From Vectrevirus LI10P3: DNA of 44,918 nt. The translations under genes and the position numbers were made by a program. Below, one piece after another: positions 4,291 through 44,918 of the stretch. The notes below the pieces were generated by a model, which made no database searches, was not told where the DNA came from, and saw only the letters and a program-made list of their open reading frames with translations. Where the stretch lies: sequence record OZ035798.1. The stretch is one strand, 5' to 3'. The number at the start of each line of letters is the position of its first letter. The first letter of the stretch is position 1.

Positions 4291-4319
4291 TACATAGCTT
4301 TATGCATCAGTGTCTTACG

Positions 4320-4342
4320 ATTTACTGGACACTATAGAAGAG
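4320..4342 (+). promoter_or_regulatory. Phage RNAP promoter
   Basis: ATTTACTGGACACTATAGAAGAG, perfect consensus upstream of tailspike 1. Confidence 0.85.
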
Positions 4343-8129: not shown

Positions 8130-8273
8130 ATGCCATTAATCAAATCAGTTAAGCAAAGTGCTGTACGCCAGAACACAGAAGAGCTTATTCAATCAGGACG
8201 TGACCCTAAGCAAGCTTATGCCATTGCCAAGGATGTTCAACGTCGTGCCTTGAAGAAACCTTCTGCATCTTAA
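8130..8273 (+). CDS. Small basic hypothetical protein (47 aa)
   Basis: AGGAAG RBS; compact ORF filling the gap before the HNH gene. Confidence 0.35.
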   Translation: MPLIKSVKQSAVRQNTEELIQSGRDPKQAYAIAKDVQRRALKKPSAS

Positions 8274-8284
8274 AGGAGATTGAT

Positions 8285-8659
8285 ATGGAAACGTGGGTAA
8301 CTGTCCCTGGCTACCCACGGTATCAAGTGTCTACTCATGGATGTGTCAAATCACTCATTGGTAATCACAAGATACTGAAGCCGGGCAAGTCAAAGAGTGG
8401 GTATTTGAACGTAGTTCTTAGTAATGAGGAAGGCAAGAAGACATTCCGTGTGCATCGCTTGGTTGCACTGTGTCATTTGCCTAATCCTCATAATCTTCCC
8501 TTAGTGAACCACAAGGATGAAGACAAGGCACATAATCATGTAGACAATTTAGAGTGGTGTACTGAAGAGTACAATCTCAAGTATTCACGTGACTACGATA
8601 GGTCTTCTCTTAGTGTAACCCAAGGACAGAAGAAGGTATGGCTTCCAGTAGACCTGTAA
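8285..8659 (+). CDS. HNH homing endonuclease (NUMOD4-like N-terminus)
   Basis: AAGGAG RBS; WVTVPGYPRYQVSTHGCV then VNHKDEDKAHNHVDNLEW; paralog of 331..774. Confidence 0.8.
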   Translation: METWVTVPGYPRYQVSTHGCVKSLIGNHKILKPGKSKSGYLNVVLSNEEGKKTFRVHRLVALCHLPNPHNLPLVNHKDEDKAHNHVDNLEWCTEEYNLKYSRDYDRSSLSVTQGQKKVWLPVDL

Positions 8660-8699
8660 CATTCAGGTAACAAAGTCAAAATTTTGATATAGGCGTGTG

Positions 8700-8860
8700 T
8701 CAGCTCTCTCGCCCTCGCCCTCGCCGGATTTCCCCCATATAGGGCCGCGCTGCGGTTGGCTTGGGAATTGGGCTGGGCTGGTCCGTCTTCAACCTGCTGC
8801 CGCAGGAAGCTCGACGGGTGGCCTAGGGCTTGCCGAGGTCTGCTCTTAGTGGCTGCACAA
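8700..8860 (+). other. GC-rich non-coding block, probable genome-terminus / terminal-repeat region
   Basis: Composition differs sharply from the rest of the window; no ORF on either strand; lies between the last late gene and the first early gene. Confidence 0.35.
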
Positions 8861-9039
8861 GGAGAACTCCTAGGAAGCGCTAGGGTACGCCTTAGTATTG
8901 GACAAGGTGATTGCCTTAGTTCAACCGCTTAGGGCTTACACGGGCCGTTTTAGGGCCATTCCTGAGCGTTTGACAGGGTGTGAGGGCGTGGACTATCTGT
9001 TCGTTTCGTTCACTCCGCTTGCGCTACGTTCACTCGCTC

Positions 9040-9180
9040 ACGTGTACCTTAGGTTATTCCTTGATGGATAGCTTAGGTTAGCCTTAGTGGATTACCTTAG
9101 TTAAAGCCTTAGTGCTTCACTTAGTATCCGCTTAGTAGTGTACCTTAGTAAGTCTTAGTGTCTTCTCTTAGTGATTGCAC
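9040..9180 (+). repeat. Array of short direct repeats, CTTAGT(G/A), at least 10 copies
   Basis: Irregularly spaced CCTTAGT/CTTAGTG copies; extra copies at 8845-8925 and 9316-9500; analogous to the heptamer arrays next to T7 terminal repeats. Confidence 0.6.
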
Positions 9181-9369
9181 ATGCAAGCATGTAAGATGCC
9201 ATTAGGTCGCGGTCGGTAGACCGCTAAAGAAGAAGTATAGTAATAAGATGCAGTAGGAGGAACACCAGAAACCTAGCCAACCTAGCCTATCCTAGCTCTG
9301 CATCTATTGCTTTTCCTTAGTCTCACATGTTAGACAACCTATCTTATTCTTAGTGATGATAACTTAGTG

Positions 9370-9398
9370 TTGACAAGATAATCTTAGTGTAATACTAT
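9370..9398 (+). promoter_or_regulatory. Candidate host sigma70 early promoter
   Basis: TTGACA, 17 nt spacer, TACTAT. Confidence 0.4.
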
Positions 9399-9470
9399 GC
9401 ATCACGTAGGCGGTGCTGAGGCACCTAGTAGCCAGCTAGTAAGGCATACGAAGAGACTAGCGCTTACATT

Positions 9471-9483
9471 GCTCTTTAACAAT
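9471..9483 (+). promoter_or_regulatory. boxA-like antitermination element, copy 1
   Basis: GCTCTTTAACAAT, identical to the rrn-type boxA core; ~66 nt downstream of the candidate promoter. Confidence 0.5.
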
Positions 9484-9541
9484 TTGCTTAGTGTAACCTA
9501 TGTATGCCGTGGTCAATTACTTATTGAATGAGGGATTAACT

Positions 9542-9721
9542 ATGACATTAAACAACCGTGAACTATCCGTTCTCTTCACTCTGTTGTGCTACATGATTCG
9601 TAAAAACGAATTGCTTACAGATGACGAGTTAGCCTTGTATCACCGCTTTCTTAACGAAGGTTGGACCGATACAGTTAATCAATACCGTAACATGATAGAT
9701 GAGTTGAGGGAGGGTAAATAA
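9542..9721 (+). CDS. Early hypothetical protein (59 aa)
   Basis: GAGGGA RBS; first ORF after the terminus region. Confidence 0.55.
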   Translation: MTLNNRELSVLFTLLCYMIRKNELLTDDELALYHRFLNEGWTDTVNQYRNMIDELREGK

Positions 9722-9945
9722 TGTATCAGCATGAGGTTTTCTTTGAGTCAGCTAGTGAAGCTATCCGCTTCCTTGAAGATATGCTACAAGCTGGCGTAGG
9801 TGTTGATGTACATCACTTCCTACTAGATTACGACACTGAATATCACCGAGTTACCTTAGTATCTGAGTATGACAACCAAGTCATTACTGAGTACCTAGGC
9901 AGTGAAGATTACGATTATGATGAAGTAATCACGACAAATCTCTAA
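9721..9945 (+). CDS. Early acidic hypothetical protein (74 aa)
   Basis: GAGGGAGGG RBS; very Asp/Glu/Tyr-rich C-terminal half. Confidence 0.6.
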   Translation: MYQHEVFFESASEAIRFLEDMLQAGVGVDVHHFLLDYDTEYHRVTLVSEYDNQVITEYLGSEDYDYDEVITTNL

Positions 9946-9953
9946 ATTAACTG

Positions 9954-9982
9954 TTGACAGCCACGGCATACAAGGCTACATT
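9954..9982 (+). promoter_or_regulatory. Candidate host sigma70 early promoter
   Basis: TTGACA, 17 nt spacer, TACATT. Confidence 0.45.
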
Positions 9983-10015
9983 AAGCATCAAGACGGCGAC
10001 GTCTTTAAACATCCC

Positions 10016-10028
10016 GCTCTTTAACAAT
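10016..10028 (+). promoter_or_regulatory. boxA-like antitermination element, copy 2
   Basis: cGCTCTTTAACAAT, ~27 nt downstream of the predicted start site of the promoter at 9954. Confidence 0.5.
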
Positions 10029-10227: not shown

Positions 10228-10240
10228 GCTCTTTAACAAT
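10228..10240 (+). promoter_or_regulatory. boxA-like antitermination element, copy 3
   Basis: GCTCTTTAACAAT, ~100 nt upstream of the ocr start codon. Confidence 0.5.
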
Positions 10241-12158: not shown

Positions 12159-14786
12159 ATGCAAGACCTACACGCTATTCAACTTCAACTTGAAGAAGAA
12201 ATGTTTAACGGCGGTATCCGTCGCTTTGAAGCGGACCAACAACGCCAGATTGCATCCGGTAATGAATCAGACACGGCATGGAATCGCCGCTTATTGTCCG
12301 AGTTAATCGCGCCAATGGCTGAAGGTATTCAGGCTTATAAGGAAGAGTACGAAGGCAAGCGCGGTCGTGCACCACGTGCATTGGCTTTCATTAACTGCGT
12401 AGAAAATGAAGTGGCAGCGTATATCACGATGAAGATCGTAATGGATATGCTTAACACTGATGTAACCTTGCAAGCTATCGCTATGAATGTAGCTGACCGC
12501 ATTGAGGACCAAGTGCGCTTCAGTAAACTAGAAGGCCATGCAGCTAAATATTTTGAGAAGGTCAAGAAGTCACTTAAGGCAAGTAAGACTAAATCATATC
12601 GCCATGCGCACAACGTAGCGGTCGTGGCTGAGAAGTCAGTAGCTGACCGTGACGCTGATTTCTCTCGCTGGGAAGCGTGGCCTAAAGATACCTTGCTACA
12701 AATTGGGATGACCTTGCTTGAAATCTTAGAGAATAGCGTATTCTTCAACGGGCAACCTGTCTTCCTCCGCACCTTGCGCACTAATGGCGGCAAACATGGT
12801 GTTTACTACCTACAGACTAGCGAACACGTGGGTGAATGGATAACTGCATTTAAAGAGCACGTAGCTCAGCTGAGTCCAGCCTATGCGCCTTGCGTGATTC
12901 CTCCTCGTCCGTGGGTGTCACCTTTTAATGGCGGTTTTCACACTGAGAAGGTGGCAAGCCGTATTCGTCTGGTTAAAGGTAACCGCGAGCACGTCCGCAA
13001 GCTGACCAAAAAGCAAATGCCAGCGGTTTACAAGGCTGTTAACGCCTTACAAGCTACTAAGTGGCAGGTTAACAAGGAAGTATTGCAGGTAGTAGAAGAT
13101 GTTATTCGTCTAGACCTCGGTTATGGTGTACCTTCCTTTAAGCCGCTCATTGACCGCGAGAACAAACCAGCTAACCCTGTTCCTCTTGAGTTCCAGCACC
13201 TGCGAGGCCGTGAATTGAAAGAGATGCTAACACCGGAGCAATGGCAGGCCTTCATCAACTGGAAGGGTGAATGTACTAAGCTGTATACCGCTGAGACTAA
13301 GCGCGGCAGCAAGTCGGCGGCGACCGTCCGCATGGTAGGACAGGCCCGTAAATACAGCCAGTTTGACGCTATTTATTTTGTATATGCACTGGACAGCCGT
13401 TCACGCGTTTATGCGCAATCTAGCACGCTCTCGCCGCAATCAAACGACTTAGGCAAGGCATTGCTCCGTTTTACCGAAGGGCAGCGTCTTGATAGCGCTG
13501 AGGCGCTTAAGTGGTTTTTGGTGAACGGGGCGAATAACTGGGGTTGGGATAAGAAAACTTTTGACGTGCGCACCTCTAACGTGCTGGATGGCGAATTTCA
13601 AGACATGTGCCGCGACATTGCAGCCGATCCGCTGACCTTCACTCAATGGGTAAATGCCGACTCCCCTTACGGCTTCCTTGCATGGTGCTTTGAATATGCG
13701 CGTTATCTGGATGCACTGGATGAAGGCACGCAAGACCAATTCATGACGCATCTACCCGTCCATCAAGACGGTAGTTGCTCTGGTATCCAGCACTATAGCG
13801 CGATGTTACGCGATGAAGTAGGTGCGAAAGCAGTAAACCTTAAGCCCTCTGACTCTCCTCAAGATATTTATGGTGCCGTTGCGCAGGTAGTAATTCAGAA
13901 GAACTATGCATACATGAATGCAGAGGATGCGGAAACCTTCACTTCTGGCAGCGTGACTTTAACAGGTGCGGAGCTGCGTAGTATGGCTAGTGCGTGGGAT
14001 ATGATAGGAATCACTCGCGGCCTGACCAAAAAGCCCGTAATGACACTACCTTATGGCAGCACACGTCTAACCTGCCGTGAGTCAGTGATTGATTATATCG
14101 TTGATTTAGAAGAAAAAGAGGCCCAACGGGCTATTGCGGAAGGGCGTACCGCCAATCCTGTACACCCTTTTGATAATGACCGTAAGGACAGCCTGACACC
14201 TAGCGCAGCTTATAACTATATGACAGCTTTAATCTGGCCTTCTATTTCGGAAGTGGTTAAAGCTCCTATAGTGGCAATGAAAATGATTCGTCAGCTTGCA
14301 CGTTTCGCAGCTAAAAGGAATGAAGGCTTAGAGTACACCTTGCCTACTGGCTTCATCTTGCAACAAAAGATAATGGCGACAGATATGCTCCGCGTATCTA
14401 CTTGCTTGATGGGAGAAATCAAGATGAGTCTACAGATTGAAACGGACGTAGTGGATGAAACGGCTATGATGGGCGCTGCTGCCCCTAACTTTGTGCACGG
14501 TCATGATGCCAGTCACCTTATCTTAACGGTCTGCGACCTTGTTGATAAAGGGATTACATCTATCGCAGTAATTCATGATTCTTTTGGCACTCATGCAGGT
14601 CGCACCGCAGACCTACGTGATAGTCTAAGGGCAGAAATGGTGAAGATGTATCAAGGCCGTAACGCTCTGCAAAGCCTGTTAGATGAGCATGAAGAACGCT
14701 GGTTAGTAGACACCGGAATCCAAGTGCCAGAGCAAGGAGAGTTTGACCTTAACGAAATCTTAGTATCTGACTATTGCTTCGCATAA
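12159..14786 (+). CDS. Single-subunit DNA-dependent RNA polymerase (T7/SP6 gene 1-like)
   Basis: 875 aa; [52 protein letters not shown] and HDSFGTHAG motifs; C-terminal ...CFA. Confidence 0.95.
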
Positions 14787-14794
14787 TATTAATA

Positions 14795-14824
14795 GGCCAT
14801 TCCTTCGGGAGTGGCCTTTCTTTT
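14795..14824 (+). terminator. Stem-loop with UUCG tetraloop and T-run after the RNAP gene
   Basis: GGCCATTCC-ttcg-GGAGTGGCC then TTTCTTTT; could alternatively be an RNase III-type site. Confidence 0.5.
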
Positions 14825-14858
14825 ACCTACTACCGGTAACATTTCATTAACATAAAGT

Positions 14859-14874
14859 GTCTCACATGTGAGAC
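14859..14874 (+). repeat. Conserved palindrome GTCTCACATGTGAGAC, copy 1
   Basis: Perfect 16 bp palindrome abutting the promoter at 14877. Confidence 0.7.
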
Positions 14875-14876
14875 TT

Positions 14877-14899
14877 ATTTACCGGACACTATAGGATAG
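14877..14899 (+). promoter_or_regulatory. Phage RNAP promoter variant (ori-associated A)
   Basis: ATTTACCGGACACTATAGGATAG. Confidence 0.6.
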
Positions 14900-14947
14900 C
14901 CGTCGGAGACGGGAAAGAAAGGGGAAGATAAAGGATATAAAAAGGAA

Positions 14948-14994
14948 GTAATAGGTATTAAAGGCTATATAGGTTATCTAGGAATACCTATTAC
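14948..14994 (+). promoter_or_regulatory. Large hairpin
   Basis: GTAATAGGTATT ... AATACCTATTAC, perfect 12 bp stem with 23 nt loop. Confidence 0.45.
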
Positions 14995-15000
14995 CTTCTT

Positions 15001-15029
15001 CCTTCCTCTTATTACTACTTAGAGGAAGG
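15001..15029 (+). promoter_or_regulatory. Hairpin
   Basis: CCTTCCTCT-tattactactt-AGAGGAAGG, perfect 9 bp stem. Confidence 0.4.
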
Positions 15030-15042
15030 GCAGATCTAGGTT

Positions 15043-15058
15043 GTCTCACATGTGAGAC
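15043..15058 (+). repeat. Conserved palindrome GTCTCACATGTGAGAC, copy 2
   Basis: Perfect 16 bp palindrome a few nt upstream of the promoter at 15064. Confidence 0.7.
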
Positions 15059-15063
15059 TTCGT

Positions 15064-15086
15064 ATTTACCGGACAGTATAGATAAG
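15064..15086 (+). promoter_or_regulatory. Phage RNAP promoter variant (ori-associated B)
   Basis: ATTTACCGGACAGTATAGATAAG. Confidence 0.5.
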
Positions 15087-15111
15087 ACTAACTTACTTTG
15101 GAGATTTAACC

Positions 15112-15240
15112 ATGCGTAACTTTGAGAAGATGACCCGTAAAGCTAACCGTTTTGACATGGAAGAAGGGCAGAAGAAAGGCAAGAAGCTGAATAAACCTGT
15201 CCGTGACCGTGCATCTAAACGCGCTGCGTGGGAGTTCTAA
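15112..15240 (+). CDS. gp1.1-like small basic protein (42 aa)
   Basis: MRNFEKMTRKANR...KLNKPVRDRASKR matches recalled T7 gp1.1; GGAG RBS; below the 60 aa cut-off of the ORF track. Confidence 0.6.
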   Translation: MRNFEKMTRKANRFDMEEGQKKGKKLNKPVRDRASKRAAWEF

Positions 15241-15243
15241 GTT

Positions 15244-17232
15244 ATGGCTATTATTCAGAATGTACCGTGTCCTGCCTGTCAAAAGAATGGACATGATATT
15301 ACTGGCAACCATCTTATGATATTTGAGGATGGCGCTGGTTACTGTAACCGTGGTCACTTCCATGATAATGGGAAGCCTTATTACCATAAGCCAGAGGGTG
15401 GCATCGAGATAACCGAGTTACCTATTACTGGCAATATCAAATATACACCTTCTCAATTCAAAGAAATGGAGAAGGAAGGGAAGATAAGCGACCCTAAGCT
15501 ACGCGCCATCGCTCTTGGTGGTATGCGTATGAAAGACCGTTGGGAGGTCATGAATGAGCAAGAAAGGGCAGACCAAGAAGCAGAGTGGAAACTTGATGTT
15601 GAATGGTTCCTCACGCTTAAGCGTAAGAACCTTGTATCCCGTCACATTCGAGGTGACATCGCAGCAATGTACGATGTGCGCGTTGGACACGATGAAGAGG
15701 GAAGAGTCAACCGTCACTATTATCCACGATATGAAAAGGGTGTGCTTGTTGGGGCAAAATGCCGGACGTTGCCGAAGGATTTTAAGTTCGGACACCTAGG
15801 TAAACTCTTTGGTATGCAAGATCTTTTCGGTATGAACACTTTGTCTCACGTGTTAGACAAGGGAAGACGAAAGGATTGCTTGCTTATTGTAGGCGGTGAA
15901 CTTGATGCACTAGCAGCGCAGCAGATGCTCCTTGATTCTGCCAAGGGTACTAAGTGGGAAGGCCAGCCATACCATGTATGGTCTGTCAACAAAGGCGAGT
16001 CTTGTCTTGAAGAGATAGTGCAAAACCGTGAGCATATCGCCCAATTCAAGAAGATTATATGGGGTTTTGATGGAGATGAGGTAGGGCAGAAGCAGAATCA
16101 GCAAGCGGCTCGCCTGTTTCCTGGCAAATCCTATATCCTTGAATACCCCTCTGGTTGCAAAGATGCTAACAAGGCATTGATGGCTGGCAAGGCCAAAGAG
16201 TTTGTTGATGCATGGTTTAATGCCAAGTCATCTGATGAAGTCTTTGGTAGCCAGATTAAATCTATCGCCTCTCAAAGGGATAAGCTCAAGGCTGCACGTC
16301 CAGAGCAAGGACTATCATGGCCTTGGCCTAAGCTGAACAAGGTAACGCTAGGTATTCGTAAGAACCAACTTATCATTGTAGGCGCAGGCTCTGGTGTAGG
16401 TAAGACTGAGTTCCTTCGTGAAGTAGTTAAGCACCTCATTGAAGAACACGGTGAATCTGTAGGCATCATTTCTACAGAAGACCCGATGGTCAAGGTGTCC
16501 CGTGCTTTTATCGGCAAGTGGATTGATAAGCGTATTGAGTTACCGCCAACCAACGACCCTAAAGAAGACGGATACCGTGAGGTGTTCGACTACACCGAGG
16601 AAGAAGCTAACGCCGCCATTGATTATGTAGCTGATACAGGTAAGCTGTTTGTAGCTGACCTAGAGGGTGACTATTCGATGGAAAAGGTAGAGCAAACTTG
16701 CCTAGAGTTTGAGGCTATGGGTATTTCTAATATCATCATTGATAACTTAACGGGGATTAAATTAGATGAGCGTGCTTTTGGTGGGAAGGTTGGTGCACTT
16801 GATGAATGCGTCAAGCGGATTGGTACTATCAAAGACCGACACCCGGTTACTATATTCCTTGTATCACACCTTACACGTCCTCCGGCAAACCGTACCCAAC
16901 ACGAAGAAGGTGGCGAAGTTATCCTTTCTGACTTCCGAGGCTCAGGAGCTATCGGATTCTGGGCATCTTACGCCTTGGGGATTGAGCGTAACACAAGAGC
17001 TGAAACGCTTGATGAAAGAACTACCACGTACATCTCATGTGTCAAAGACCGCGACCAAGGTATCTGGACTGGAACCAAGGTCATGCTTAAGGGTGACATT
17101 CAAACCGGACGTTTAATGGAACCACAAGCCCGTACTAAGTCATTTGATACAGGTGAAGCAAGGCAACAAGAAGTACCAGATTTACCGGACACTATAGAAG
17201 AGACTAACTTCGATGAAGAAAGTGAGTTCTGA
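15244..17232 (+). CDS. DNA primase/helicase (gp4-like)
   Basis: N-terminal zinc-binding CPACQ...CNRGH; Walker A GAGSGVGKT; acidic C-terminus FDEESEF. Confidence 0.9.
   Translation: MAIIQNVPCPACQKNGHDITGNHLMIFEDGAGYCNRGHFHDNGKPYYHKPEGGIEITELPITGNIKYTPSQFKEMEKEGKISDPKLRAIALGGMRMKDRWEVMNEQERADQEAEWKLDVEWFLTLKRKNLVSRHIRGDIAAMYDVRVGHDEEGRVNRHYYPRYEKGVLVGAKCRTLPKDFKFGHLGKLFGMQDLFGMNTLSHVLDKGRRKDCLLIVGGELDALAAQQMLLDSAKGTKWEGQPYHVWSVNKGESCLEEIVQNREHIAQFKKIIWGFDGDEVGQKQNQQAARLFPGKSYILEYPSGCKDANKALMAGKAKEFVDAWFNAKSSDEVFGSQIKSIASQRDKLKAARPEQGLSWPWPKLNKVTLGIRKNQLIIVGAGSGVGKTEFLREVVKHLIEEHGESVGIISTEDPMVKVSRAFIGKWIDKRIELPPTNDPKEDGYREVFDYTEEEANAAIDYVADTGKLFVADLEGDYSMEKVEQTCLEFEAMGISNIIIDNLTGIKLDERAFGGKVGALDECVKRIGTIKDRHPVTIFLVSHLTRPPANRTQHEEGGEVILSDFRGSGAIGFWASYALGIERNTRAETLDERTTTYISCVKDRDQGIWTGTKVMLKGDIQTGRLMEPQARTKSFDTGEARQQEVPDLPDTIEETNFDEESEF
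17180..17202 (+). promoter_or_regulatory. Phage RNAP promoter inside the helicase 3' end
   Basis: ATTTACCGGACACTATAGAAGAG. Confidence 0.6.
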
Positions 17233-17248
17233 TTAGTGTATTTATCAG

Positions 17249-17275
17249 GGCTTGTCTCACATGTGAGACAGGCTC
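17249..17275 (+). repeat. Conserved palindrome, copy 3 (extended hairpin, terminator-like)
   Basis: GGCTTGTCTCACATGTGAGACAGGCTC then CTTATT; nearly identical to the copy at 40549. Confidence 0.65.
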
Positions 17276-40548: not shown

Positions 40549-40575
40549 GGCTTGTCTCACATGTGAGACAGGTCT
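40549..40575 (+). repeat. Conserved palindrome, copy 6 (extended hairpin, terminator-like)
   Basis: GGCTTGTCTCACATGTGAGACAGGTCT then TTATG. Confidence 0.65.
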
Positions 40576-44769: not shown

Positions 44770-44918
44770 ATGATTAACTCCGAACTGGTAGATAGTGGTG
44801 TGAAGCTTGCGCCACCTGCACTCGTATCAGGTGGGTACTTCCTCGGTATCAGTTGGGATAATTGGGTGTTAATAGCAACATTCATTTATACCGTGTTGCA
44901 AATTGGGGACTGGTTTTA
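44770..44918 (+). CDS. Holin (gp17.5-like), truncated by the window end
   Basis: MINSELVDSGVKLAPPALVSGGYFLGISWDNWVLIATFIYTVLQIGDWF... parallels recalled T7 holin; ORF runs off the window. Confidence 0.65.
   Translation, partial: MINSELVDSGVKLAPPALVSGGYFLGISWDNWVLIATFIYTVLQIGDWF

Follow-up and report, generated by a model that had tools for sequence, protein, structure and literature searches.

A long non-coding interval between an HNH gene and the first early gene

We analyzed one strand of the genome sequence of Vectrevirus LI10P3 (OZ035798.1), a stretch of 44,918 nt that we refer to throughout as the window, and followed up the non-coding gap at 8660-9541, which lies between the end of an HNH ORF (8659) and the start of the first early gene (9542). 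At 882 bp, this gap exceeds every other in the window, the runner-up among the retained ORFs being a gap of ~458 bp (14786-15244), in agreement with an earlier note on this DNA that had described a single long non-coding interval at this place. The gap also stands out in composition: a 200-bp segment from 8701 is the GC maximum of the window (0.625, against a mean of 0.45 with a standard deviation of 0.045), and positions 8708-8995 have a GC content of 60%. The GC-rich segment that had been placed at 8700-8860 does coincide with the highest GC content of the window, but its right limit was drawn too early, as the enrichment continues past 8860, to 8995.

An Rfam scan of 8200-10000 returned nothing but a chance match to a snoRNA (E = 0.34), and single-strand folding gave no greater stability than that of shuffled sequences for 8660-8760, 9172-9275 or 9400-9545. 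A consensus scan for promoters of the phage RNA polymerase (ATTTACTGGACACTATAGAAG) found none within the interval, the nearest being the last late promoter upstream (~4313-4340, plus strand) and the first downstream promoter at ~10790; nor did the promoter scan find a leftward promoter equivalent to T7 A0. A TTGACA hexamer at 8970-8975 was considered as part of a sigma-70 promoter at the junction and rejected: its -10 element is poor, it was not called by the scan, and IME184, phD2B and Kp7 lack the -35 element.

The window is a circularly permuted genome opened inside the holin gene

Using megablast, we matched positions 8600-9600 to 118 phage records, nearly all of which belong to Vectrevirus (K1E/K1-5-like coliphages) or to other Molineuxvirinae, with the best match covering the full length at 93% identity. 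The gene order is that of the T7 supergroup, almost wholly on the plus strand, and the gene content comprises early genes including ocr, RNA polymerase, replication and structural genes, a holin, the small and large terminase, and tailspikes. The small terminase (30-329) is 68-78% identical to the proteins of SP6, PM93, phD2B and Kp7, and the large terminase (722-2659) contains the T7 RNaseH-like terminase domain (PF22530, E = 1.6e-35).

The holin ORF is split by the ends of the window, running from 44770 to 44918 and continuing at 1-46. When the last 400 and the first 400 bases were joined artificially, the resulting junction, which covers tail fibre, holin and small terminase, was found uninterrupted in linear relatives (100% coverage, 99.5% identity). 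The continuity of the junction in linear relatives shows the window to be a complete genome whose opening point is arbitrary; and since its ends are contiguous while the terminal repeat described below occurs only once, it is best read as a permuted representation in which the direct terminal repeat (DTR) has collapsed. Such collapse to a mid-contig position is a documented assembly artefact in T7-like phages (PMC10438801). The artificial junction thereby sustains the proposal of the earlier note that the holin gene cut by the window end marks a circularly permuted linear genome. Judged by these alignments, the window is a complete, circularly permuted Vectrevirus (K1E/K1-5-like) assembly, the ends of which meet within the holin gene.

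A single collapsed copy of the direct terminal repeat

The GC-rich block is homologous to the DTR of related phages. One collapsed copy of ~288 bp lies at 8705..8995 (plus strand, GC 0.60), and no second copy is present in the window. In the records of seven relatives, by comparison, exact repeats are found at both ends: 286 bp in mutPK1A2, 267 bp in Mt1B1_P10, 288 bp in K1E, 234 bp in K1-5, 174 bp in SP6, 262 bp in phD2B and 238 bp in Kp7. The window aligns base for base, and continuously, with the right unique end, then the DTR, and then the left unique end of relatives. By alignment, the left terminus falls at 8705 (SP6), 8707 (K1E, ACG-C91), 8708 (mutPK1A2, Mt1B1_P10) or 8709 (K1-5), the reference left ends being spread across 5 nt. 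The right terminus always falls at 8995 (...GTGGACTA), including in K1-5, VEc3, AAPEc6 and EC120, and additional records begin or end at window positions 8707/8708 and 8995. Inside the repeat are three tandem copies of CTCGCC (8708-8725), the palindrome CCCCCATATAGGG (8732-8744) and, all on the plus strand, CTTAGT at 8845, 8891 and 8915 and CTTAGG at 8928.

In UAB_Phi78, an SP6-like phage, a 179-bp DTR with defined ends has been mapped by Bal31 digestion and run-off sequencing (PMC4837284). Relative to the SP6 positions, the annotated boundaries of this DTR are shifted leftward by 15 and 10 nt, and because an experimentally mapped repeat is offset in this manner, we attach an uncertainty of ~15 nt to the boundaries given here. 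Within that margin, the virion DNA would run from ~8705-8709 (TCTCTCGCC...) to 8995, and a repeat of ~288 bp at both virion ends would bring the true genome length to ~45.2 kb. Its homology identifies the GC-rich block as the terminal repeat proper and not as flanking sequence, and the interval is a member of the SP6/K1E-type family of genome ends. The seven relatives with repeats at both ends thus speak for the view that the genome ends are internal to the window, at 8660-9540. The companion suggestion that short repeats flank the terminal repeat describes the 10-copy array that follows the DTR, but does not account for the three CTTAGT and one CTTAGG inside it.

A conserved 34-bp box next to the predicted left cut site

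Relatives carry a cluster of three repeat copies (CTTAGTgtacaCAAGGgcagaCTTAGGtttgctCTTAGTgtaatcCAAGGAGG) at their right end, after a gp51-like ORF. In the window, homology to these relatives stops at 8272 and restarts at ~8667, and the HNH ORF (8285-8659), which matches NUMOD4 (E = 1e-9), HNH_3 and the HNH families of PHROG, sits between the two points. One copy of the cluster survives inside the 3' end of the HNH ORF (CTTAGTGTAACCCAAGGA, 8609..8626, plus strand), and window positions 8599-8626 match the third cluster copy of K1E. Two more repeat copies within the ORF, at 8417 and 8500, are of uncertain meaning.

On its left side, the predicted left cut site is bordered by a 34-bp box (CAAAGTCAAAATTTTGATATAGGCGTGTGTCAGC, 8671..8704, plus strand), which includes the 12-bp palindrome TCAAAATTTTGA (8676-8687). 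A near-identical box precedes the right DTR copy in K1E, K1-5, mutPK1A2, Mt1B1_P10, SP6, PM93, phD2B, IME184 and Kp7. In a search among distant phages, the box alone still matched Proteus, Klebsiella, Pectobacterium and Lelliottia phages at 83-97% identity; it is almost invariant (also in Escherichia and Salmonella phages) even where the repeat has diverged, and together with ATCTGTT at the opposite boundary it is kept across five genera. We consider this box a candidate terminase recognition/cleavage (pac-type) element, and as a target for the small terminase it would appear better suited than the variable short repeats.

ATCTGTT straddles the right boundary of the repeat

The heptamer ATCTGTT at 8995..9001 (plus strand) straddles the right boundary of the DTR. 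It is the only plus-strand copy in the window, and with the preceding base it reads TATCTGTT (8994-9001), a form of HATCTGTT. T7-type RNA polymerases respond to this octamer as their class II pause/termination signal (10.1101/2021.01.11.426313; 10.64898/2026.02.12.705533), and any base change in ATCTGTT abolishes termination by T7 polymerase (10.1101/2021.01.11.426313). ATCTGTT is kept at this position in nine relatives (among them K1E, K1-5, mutPK1A2, SP6, UAB_Phi78, PM93, phD2B and IME184), and the position corresponds to the concatemer-junction (CJ) site of T7, at T7 161, directly after the 160-bp terminal repeat (TR). In T7, the class II pause signal in the concatemer junction is linked to concatemer maturation. 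Kp7 and L037 read ATCTGTC here, and with this exception in mind, the conservation of ATCTGTT may reflect a nuclease cut site and not a polymerase pause. Between the last late promoter and 8705, a consensus scan, which cannot exclude termination, found no convincing terminator.

CTTAGT repeats on one strand of the interval

The hexamer CTTAGT occurs 16 times on the plus strand of 8660-9540 and not once on the minus strand, against an expectation of 0.32 copies (Poisson P = 4e-22); the rest of the genome (44 kb) holds 16 copies on the plus and 20 on the minus strand. Counted by other patterns, the interval contains 13 copies of CTTAGT(G/A) and 19 of CTTAG(T/G). The figure of at least 15 CTTAGT(G/A) repeats given previously is thus reached by the hexamer, but not by the strict heptamer, of which there are only 13. 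Three of the 16 hexamers lie in the terminal repeat, eight in an array at 9048-9172, and five around the early promoter.

This array consists of ten (C)CTTAG(T/G) copies in one orientation (9048..9172, plus strand) with a mean period of 11.9 bp and near-regular spacings (24, 11, 13, 12, 12, 11, 13, 10 and 13). Its conservation was assessed in 22 distinct relatives, among them IMG/VR contigs found by pattern search. Motif columns were more conserved than spacers (0.91 versus 0.69, P = 3e-13), and copy number ranged from 4 to 10, with no copies on the opposite strand. The CTTAGT layout is also found in K1E, K1-5, mutPK1A2, SP6, PM93 and IME184, and is shared by Vectrevirus, Zindervirus and Acadevirus. 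Similar layouts are built from other units elsewhere: CATGATG, the unit of Tuodvirus, in phD2B; CTGTGGATA inside the repeat and ATAGTGC after it in Kp7; and CCTAAAG in T7. By position, the array at 9048-9172 is the analogue of T7 SRL; as its unit differs from CCTAAAG, it is not a sequence homologue.

We weighed the small terminase, gp1, the phage RNA polymerase and a host factor as proteins that could read these repeats, and found no candidate among them. In the alignment of small terminases, CTTAGT phages are not set apart from the rest by any block, the window protein being 76% identical to that of SP6 and 78% to that of PM93, versus 69% for phD2B and 68% for Kp7. Since it is uniformly conserved across motif classes, the small terminase is not an obvious reader of repeats that vary. 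The product of the first early gene, gp1 (9542-9721, phrog_9275), is present in SP6, PM93 and IME184, which carry CTTAGT, and absent from phD2B and Kp7, which carry other motifs; it was nevertheless rejected, being small and acidic (7 K/R versus 10 D/E), with a correlation to motif class that follows phylogeny. The phage RNA polymerase was rejected because its promoter consensus is unlike the repeat. Moreover, the SP6 promoter (ATTTAGGTGACACTATAGAAG) differs upstream from the consensus of the window although SP6 has the same repeat. A host factor is unlikely, as phages of the same host carry different motifs: T7 infects the same host as K1E, and IME184 the same host as Kp7, and yet the motifs differ within each pair, which makes a phage-encoded reader likelier than a host one.

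Hairpins, early promoter and boxA-like leader

Downstream of the array are two hairpins on the plus strand, ACATGC-AA-GCATGT (9179-9192) and GCGGTC-GGTA-GACCGC (9209-9224), accompanied by two copies of TAAGATGC, one directly after the first hairpin (9192-9199) and the other 20 nt downstream of the second (9244-9251). Among relatives, the first hairpin occurs in five stem versions and the second in two (GCGGTC and GCTTGC, the latter with one additional pair in two sequences), and all of these are perfectly complementary. Hairpins and TAAGATGC copies together (9179-9251) form a conserved element. They are followed by three CCTAGC copies (9272..9296, plus strand) at a spacing of 9-10 bp, which are kept in K1E, K1-5, mutPK1A2 and SP6.

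The early promoter zone (9316..9398, plus strand) contains CTTAGT at 9316, 9349, 9363 and 9383, and a quasi-palindrome, GTCTCACATGTTAGAC, at 9320-9335. Its sigma-70-type promoter (9370-9398) is composed of TTGACA (9370-9375), a 17-nt spacer and TACTAT (9393-9398); with 10 of 12 consensus matches it is the top-scoring promoter of the region. One CTTAGT adjoins the -35 element and another sits in the spacer. The core of the promoter is kept in K1-5, PM93, K1E and SP6, and a 33-bp insert before it is present in K1E, SP6 and mutPK1A2 and absent from the window and K1-5. The leader of the first early transcript carries a boxA-like sequence, GCTCTTTAACAAT (9471..9483, plus strand), which presumably represents the rrn boxA antitermination consensus, and the last CTTAGT (9487, plus strand) lies between this sequence and gene 1. 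Copies of GCTCTTTAACAAT are found in the window at 9472, 10017 and 10229, and in T7 at 814; two or three copies occur in the early regions of SP6, PM93, phD2B and Kp7, and the sequence is invariant in the alignment of relatives.

Comparison with known genome ends

The closest known systems are the SP6-like phages SP6, K1-5, K1E and mutPK1A2 (Autographiviridae, Molineuxvirinae), to which the whole interval is homologous, with 85-95% identity to Vectrevirus records. They share with the window the CTTAGT layout and the sequences at both termini (TCTC(TC)GCC... on the left, and ...GGGCTA before and TCTGTT after the right boundary). The differences are that the window, as a result of circularised assembly, has one copy of the repeat, and that its HNH gene (NUMOD4/HNH_3) replaces most of the three-copy cluster at the right end.

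In T7, the elements have the same order and orientation. Its record contains a 160-bp TR with 3 CCTAAAG, ATCTGTT at 161, an 8-copy array on the same strand at 175-333, and a further 2 copies immediately before the right TR, so that the likeness to T7 terminal-repeat short repeats, to which the earlier note had pointed, extends to the order of the elements. Like the window, T7 has a repeat with same-strand heptamers, the boundary ATCTGTT, a dense same-strand array, early promoters and a leader with GCTCTTTAACAAT. Both left ends begin with TCTC and have a CCCCAT..GGGG palindrome ~25 nt in; T7 starts with TCTCACAG and carries CCCCCATAGGGGG at the same distance from the end as CCCCCATATAGGG in the window. 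Unlike T7, however, the window uses CTTAGT instead of CCTAAAG, its repeat is longer and GC-rich, and its interval has no phage promoter of the phiOL type. As T7 belongs to a different subfamily, we regard the likeness of the interval to the TR, CJ and short-repeat arrays (SRL/SRR) of T7 as an analogy of architecture and not as sequence homology, apart from a few short motifs.

Short repeats beside a terminase cut site are also known from phages that package differently. Repeated hexamers or heptamers flank the cut site in P1 pac (TGATCA/G repeats) and in the pacL/pacR boxes of SPP1; these phages package by the headful mechanism, have permuted genomes, and their repeats have been demonstrated to bind a terminase subunit. 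The window resembles them in having multiple short repeats of the same sequence around the putative cut site.

A model for the interval and alternative explanations

Considering this evidence together, we are confident that the interval represents the concatemer junction of a linear T7-supergroup genome (SP6/K1E type), which the assembler circularised and opened inside the holin gene. In such a genome, replication would link genomes head to tail into concatemers, each junction holding one repeat, just as the window does. To recognize the junction, a terminase of the T7 type would use two conserved sequences, the 34-bp box at its left and the one at the right boundary; it would cut at both boundaries, and DNA synthesis would duplicate the repeat, by analogy with T7/T3. 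Of the T7 terminase subunits, the small one (gp18) binds PacB and the large one (gp19) cuts PacC (PMC9860248). Because no convincing terminator lies between 4340 and 8705, late transcription would be expected to reach the junction, where phage RNA polymerase that started at the last late promoter (~4313-4340) may pause at ATCTGTT, as in T7. The same-strand CTTAGT copies would most likely bind a phage-encoded protein that marks the genome-end region and assists in its processing, the least secure step of the model; a part in concatemer processing would presumably fall to these repeats, as it presumably does in T7 itself. Upon ejection, the left end would enter first, and host RNA polymerase would start at 9370-9398 and read through the boxA leader into gene 1.

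The main rival concerns this role of the repeats, and holds that the CTTAGT copies are not packaging elements but regulatory or entry sites for a lineage-specific phage factor that acts on the first-entering DNA and the early promoter, for example in shut-off or timing of host polymerase. The motif of every lineage adjoins or overlaps its own early promoter, as seen from CTTAGTgTTGACA...CTTAGTgtaaTACTAT in the window, ATAGTGCTTGACA in Kp7, TTGCATGATG in phD2B and TTGACTTAAAGT in the T7 A1 promoter. The change of motif between genera that have a conserved small terminase fits such a role as well, and so do the different motifs in T7/K1E and IME184/Kp7, which point to a phage-encoded reader. However, a purely promoter-linked function leaves the copies inside the DTR and those upstream at the right end unexplained, and no DNA-binding candidate was found for it, gp1 tracking motif class but being acidic. 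We therefore see a regulatory role as a genuine possibility, though an unlikely one.

It is also conceivable that the array and the adjacent hairpins constitute a replication origin, with iteron-like repeats beside structured DNA, and this description would suit the ten direct repeats, which are phased, with the two covarying hairpins beside them. Nevertheless, the interval has neither an AT-rich unwinding stretch nor a phage promoter, no initiator gene is known in this phage group, and the same motif recurs inside the DTR and at the right end, all of which renders an origin improbable. For the GC-rich block, headful (pac) packaging would imply permuted ends without fixed termini and reduce the block to a pac region, consistent with the window itself being permuted and having no second repeat copy. 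We judge this highly improbable, as the terminase is of the T7 type, the linear records of many relatives have identical ends, located at the same bases, UAB_Phi78 has defined ends (PMC4837284), and collapse of a DTR is a known assembly artefact (PMC10438801). That the block was inserted from a foreign source or encodes a structured non-coding RNA, as its composition, the most extreme in the window, might suggest, has a negligible chance of being correct, given its full-length homology to the DTR of relatives, the lack of an Rfam match, and folds of 8660-8760 that are no better than shuffled.

Implications

The end architecture described here is already known for phages of the T7/SP6 type, and this phage does not depart from what is known for its group. 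For the record itself, the reading as a concatemer junction means that it can be re-oriented to begin at ~8705-8709, with a second copy of the repeat added (~45.2 kb), and that a DTR, a pause site, a repeat array, an early promoter and a boxA leader can be entered as features of the 882-bp gap.

The turnover of motifs under a conserved layout provides a comparative handle on what reads the repeats beside terminal repeats. As a speculation, which we think rather doubtful, the short repeats would make up a recognition code that evolves fast, is specific to each lineage and is read by a phage-encoded factor; its motif is swapped wholesale between sister genera, while the copies keep their number and strand, their placement with respect to the repeat and their contact with the early promoter. 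The same cis-element could also include the covarying hairpins and both TAAGATGC copies (9179-9251). If true, such a code would connect the marking of genome ends with the control of early transcription.

Terminal repeats and their flanking short repeats

The short repeat beside the terminal repeat was compared between the window and four related phages, phD2B (1-800), Kp7 (1-1000), PM93 (1-600) and IME184, and we found that genera of the Molineuxvirinae differ in the unit used (CTTAGT, CATGATG, ATAGTGC or CTGTGGATA). Even the two Klebsiella phages IME184 and Kp7 have different units. Despite this change of unit, the number, strand and position of the short repeats are retained. For the terminal repeat itself, we compared UAB_Phi78 (records L047/L020, 1-200), whose experimentally mapped direct terminal repeat is annotated at 1-180, with SP6 (record L045, 1-180). 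Relative to the SP6-type termini, the UAB_Phi78 repeat is shifted to the left, by 15 nt at its start and by 10 nt at its end, an offset that reflects either a true difference in termini between close relatives or imprecision in one of the two determinations.

Elements surrounding the early promoter

Two short hairpins (9179-9251) precede the one good early promoter (9370-9398), a position from which they may act either as RNA or as DNA. Their stems vary among relatives (ACATGC, ATAGCT, ATAGC, ACAAGC and ATATGC for hairpin 1; GCGGTC and GCTTGC for hairpin 2), while full complementarity is kept. The sequence TAAGATGC lies immediately 3' of hairpin 1, with a second copy 20 nt downstream of hairpin 2. 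Rfam returned no match for the hairpin region.

Between the hairpins and the promoter lies a degenerate copy (9320-9335) of a 16-bp palindrome, GTCTCACATGTGAGAC, of which the window contains four perfect copies (14858-14873, 15043-15058, 17253-17268 and 40552-40567). Two of the four immediately precede phage promoters, and in two the stem is longer and runs into a T-rich stretch, which gives them the look of a terminator. A related sequence, TCCAACATGTTGGACA, precedes the early promoter in PM93, Kp7 and phD2B. In K1E (~660-700), SP6 (record L009, ~520-560) and mutPK1A2 (~640-680), an insert of 33 bp ahead of the early promoter contains TGTGACATGTATCACA, which fits the CRP-site consensus TGTGA-N6-TCACA without a mismatch; the window and K1-5 lack this insert.

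Ahead of the early gene blocks, the window contains three copies of GCTCTTTAACAAT (9471-9483, 10016-10028 and 10228-10240), a sequence that matches the rrn boxA consensus for antitermination exactly. This element is kept in SP6, PM93, phD2B, Kp7 and T7 (813-825 in the latter), and its presence and conservation suggest that early transcripts made by the host polymerase undergo Nus-dependent antitermination. The first early gene (9542-9721) encodes a 59-aa acidic protein (phrog_9275) that is present in members infecting E. coli, Salmonella, Citrobacter and Raoultella, as well as some Klebsiella members. The Proteus phage PM93 showed a weak match only. phD2B and Kp7 have unrelated first genes and yielded no homologue.

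HNH endonuclease genes and genome mosaicism

A NUMOD4/HNH_3 homing-endonuclease gene (8285-8659), flanked by a gp51-like ORF (8130-8273) on one side and by the conserved right-end box (8671-8704) on the other, takes the place of a CTTAGT cluster that has three copies in relatives. Within the gene, CTTAGT occurs three times on the same strand (8417, 8500 and 8609; 0.15 expected, P = 5e-4). One of these copies falls in the codons for the HNH motif (PLVNHKD), and one corresponds by homology to copy three of the K1E cluster. Another HNH_3 endonuclease ORF (184-774) interrupts the terminase genes, between the small (30-329) and the large (722-2659) subunit. It is absent from some relatives (K1-5, EEc2/4 and G9), whose match to an 800-base query joining the last and first 400 bases of the window ends at base 730.

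The genome is a mosaic. At the holin/terminase junction, 101101UKE1 and KMB47 match the window with 99.5% identity, and VEc3 and AAPEc6 with 99.1%, while the end region (8660-9600) reaches at most 93% identity to any record, its top matches being other phages (OZ035735 and OZ035797).
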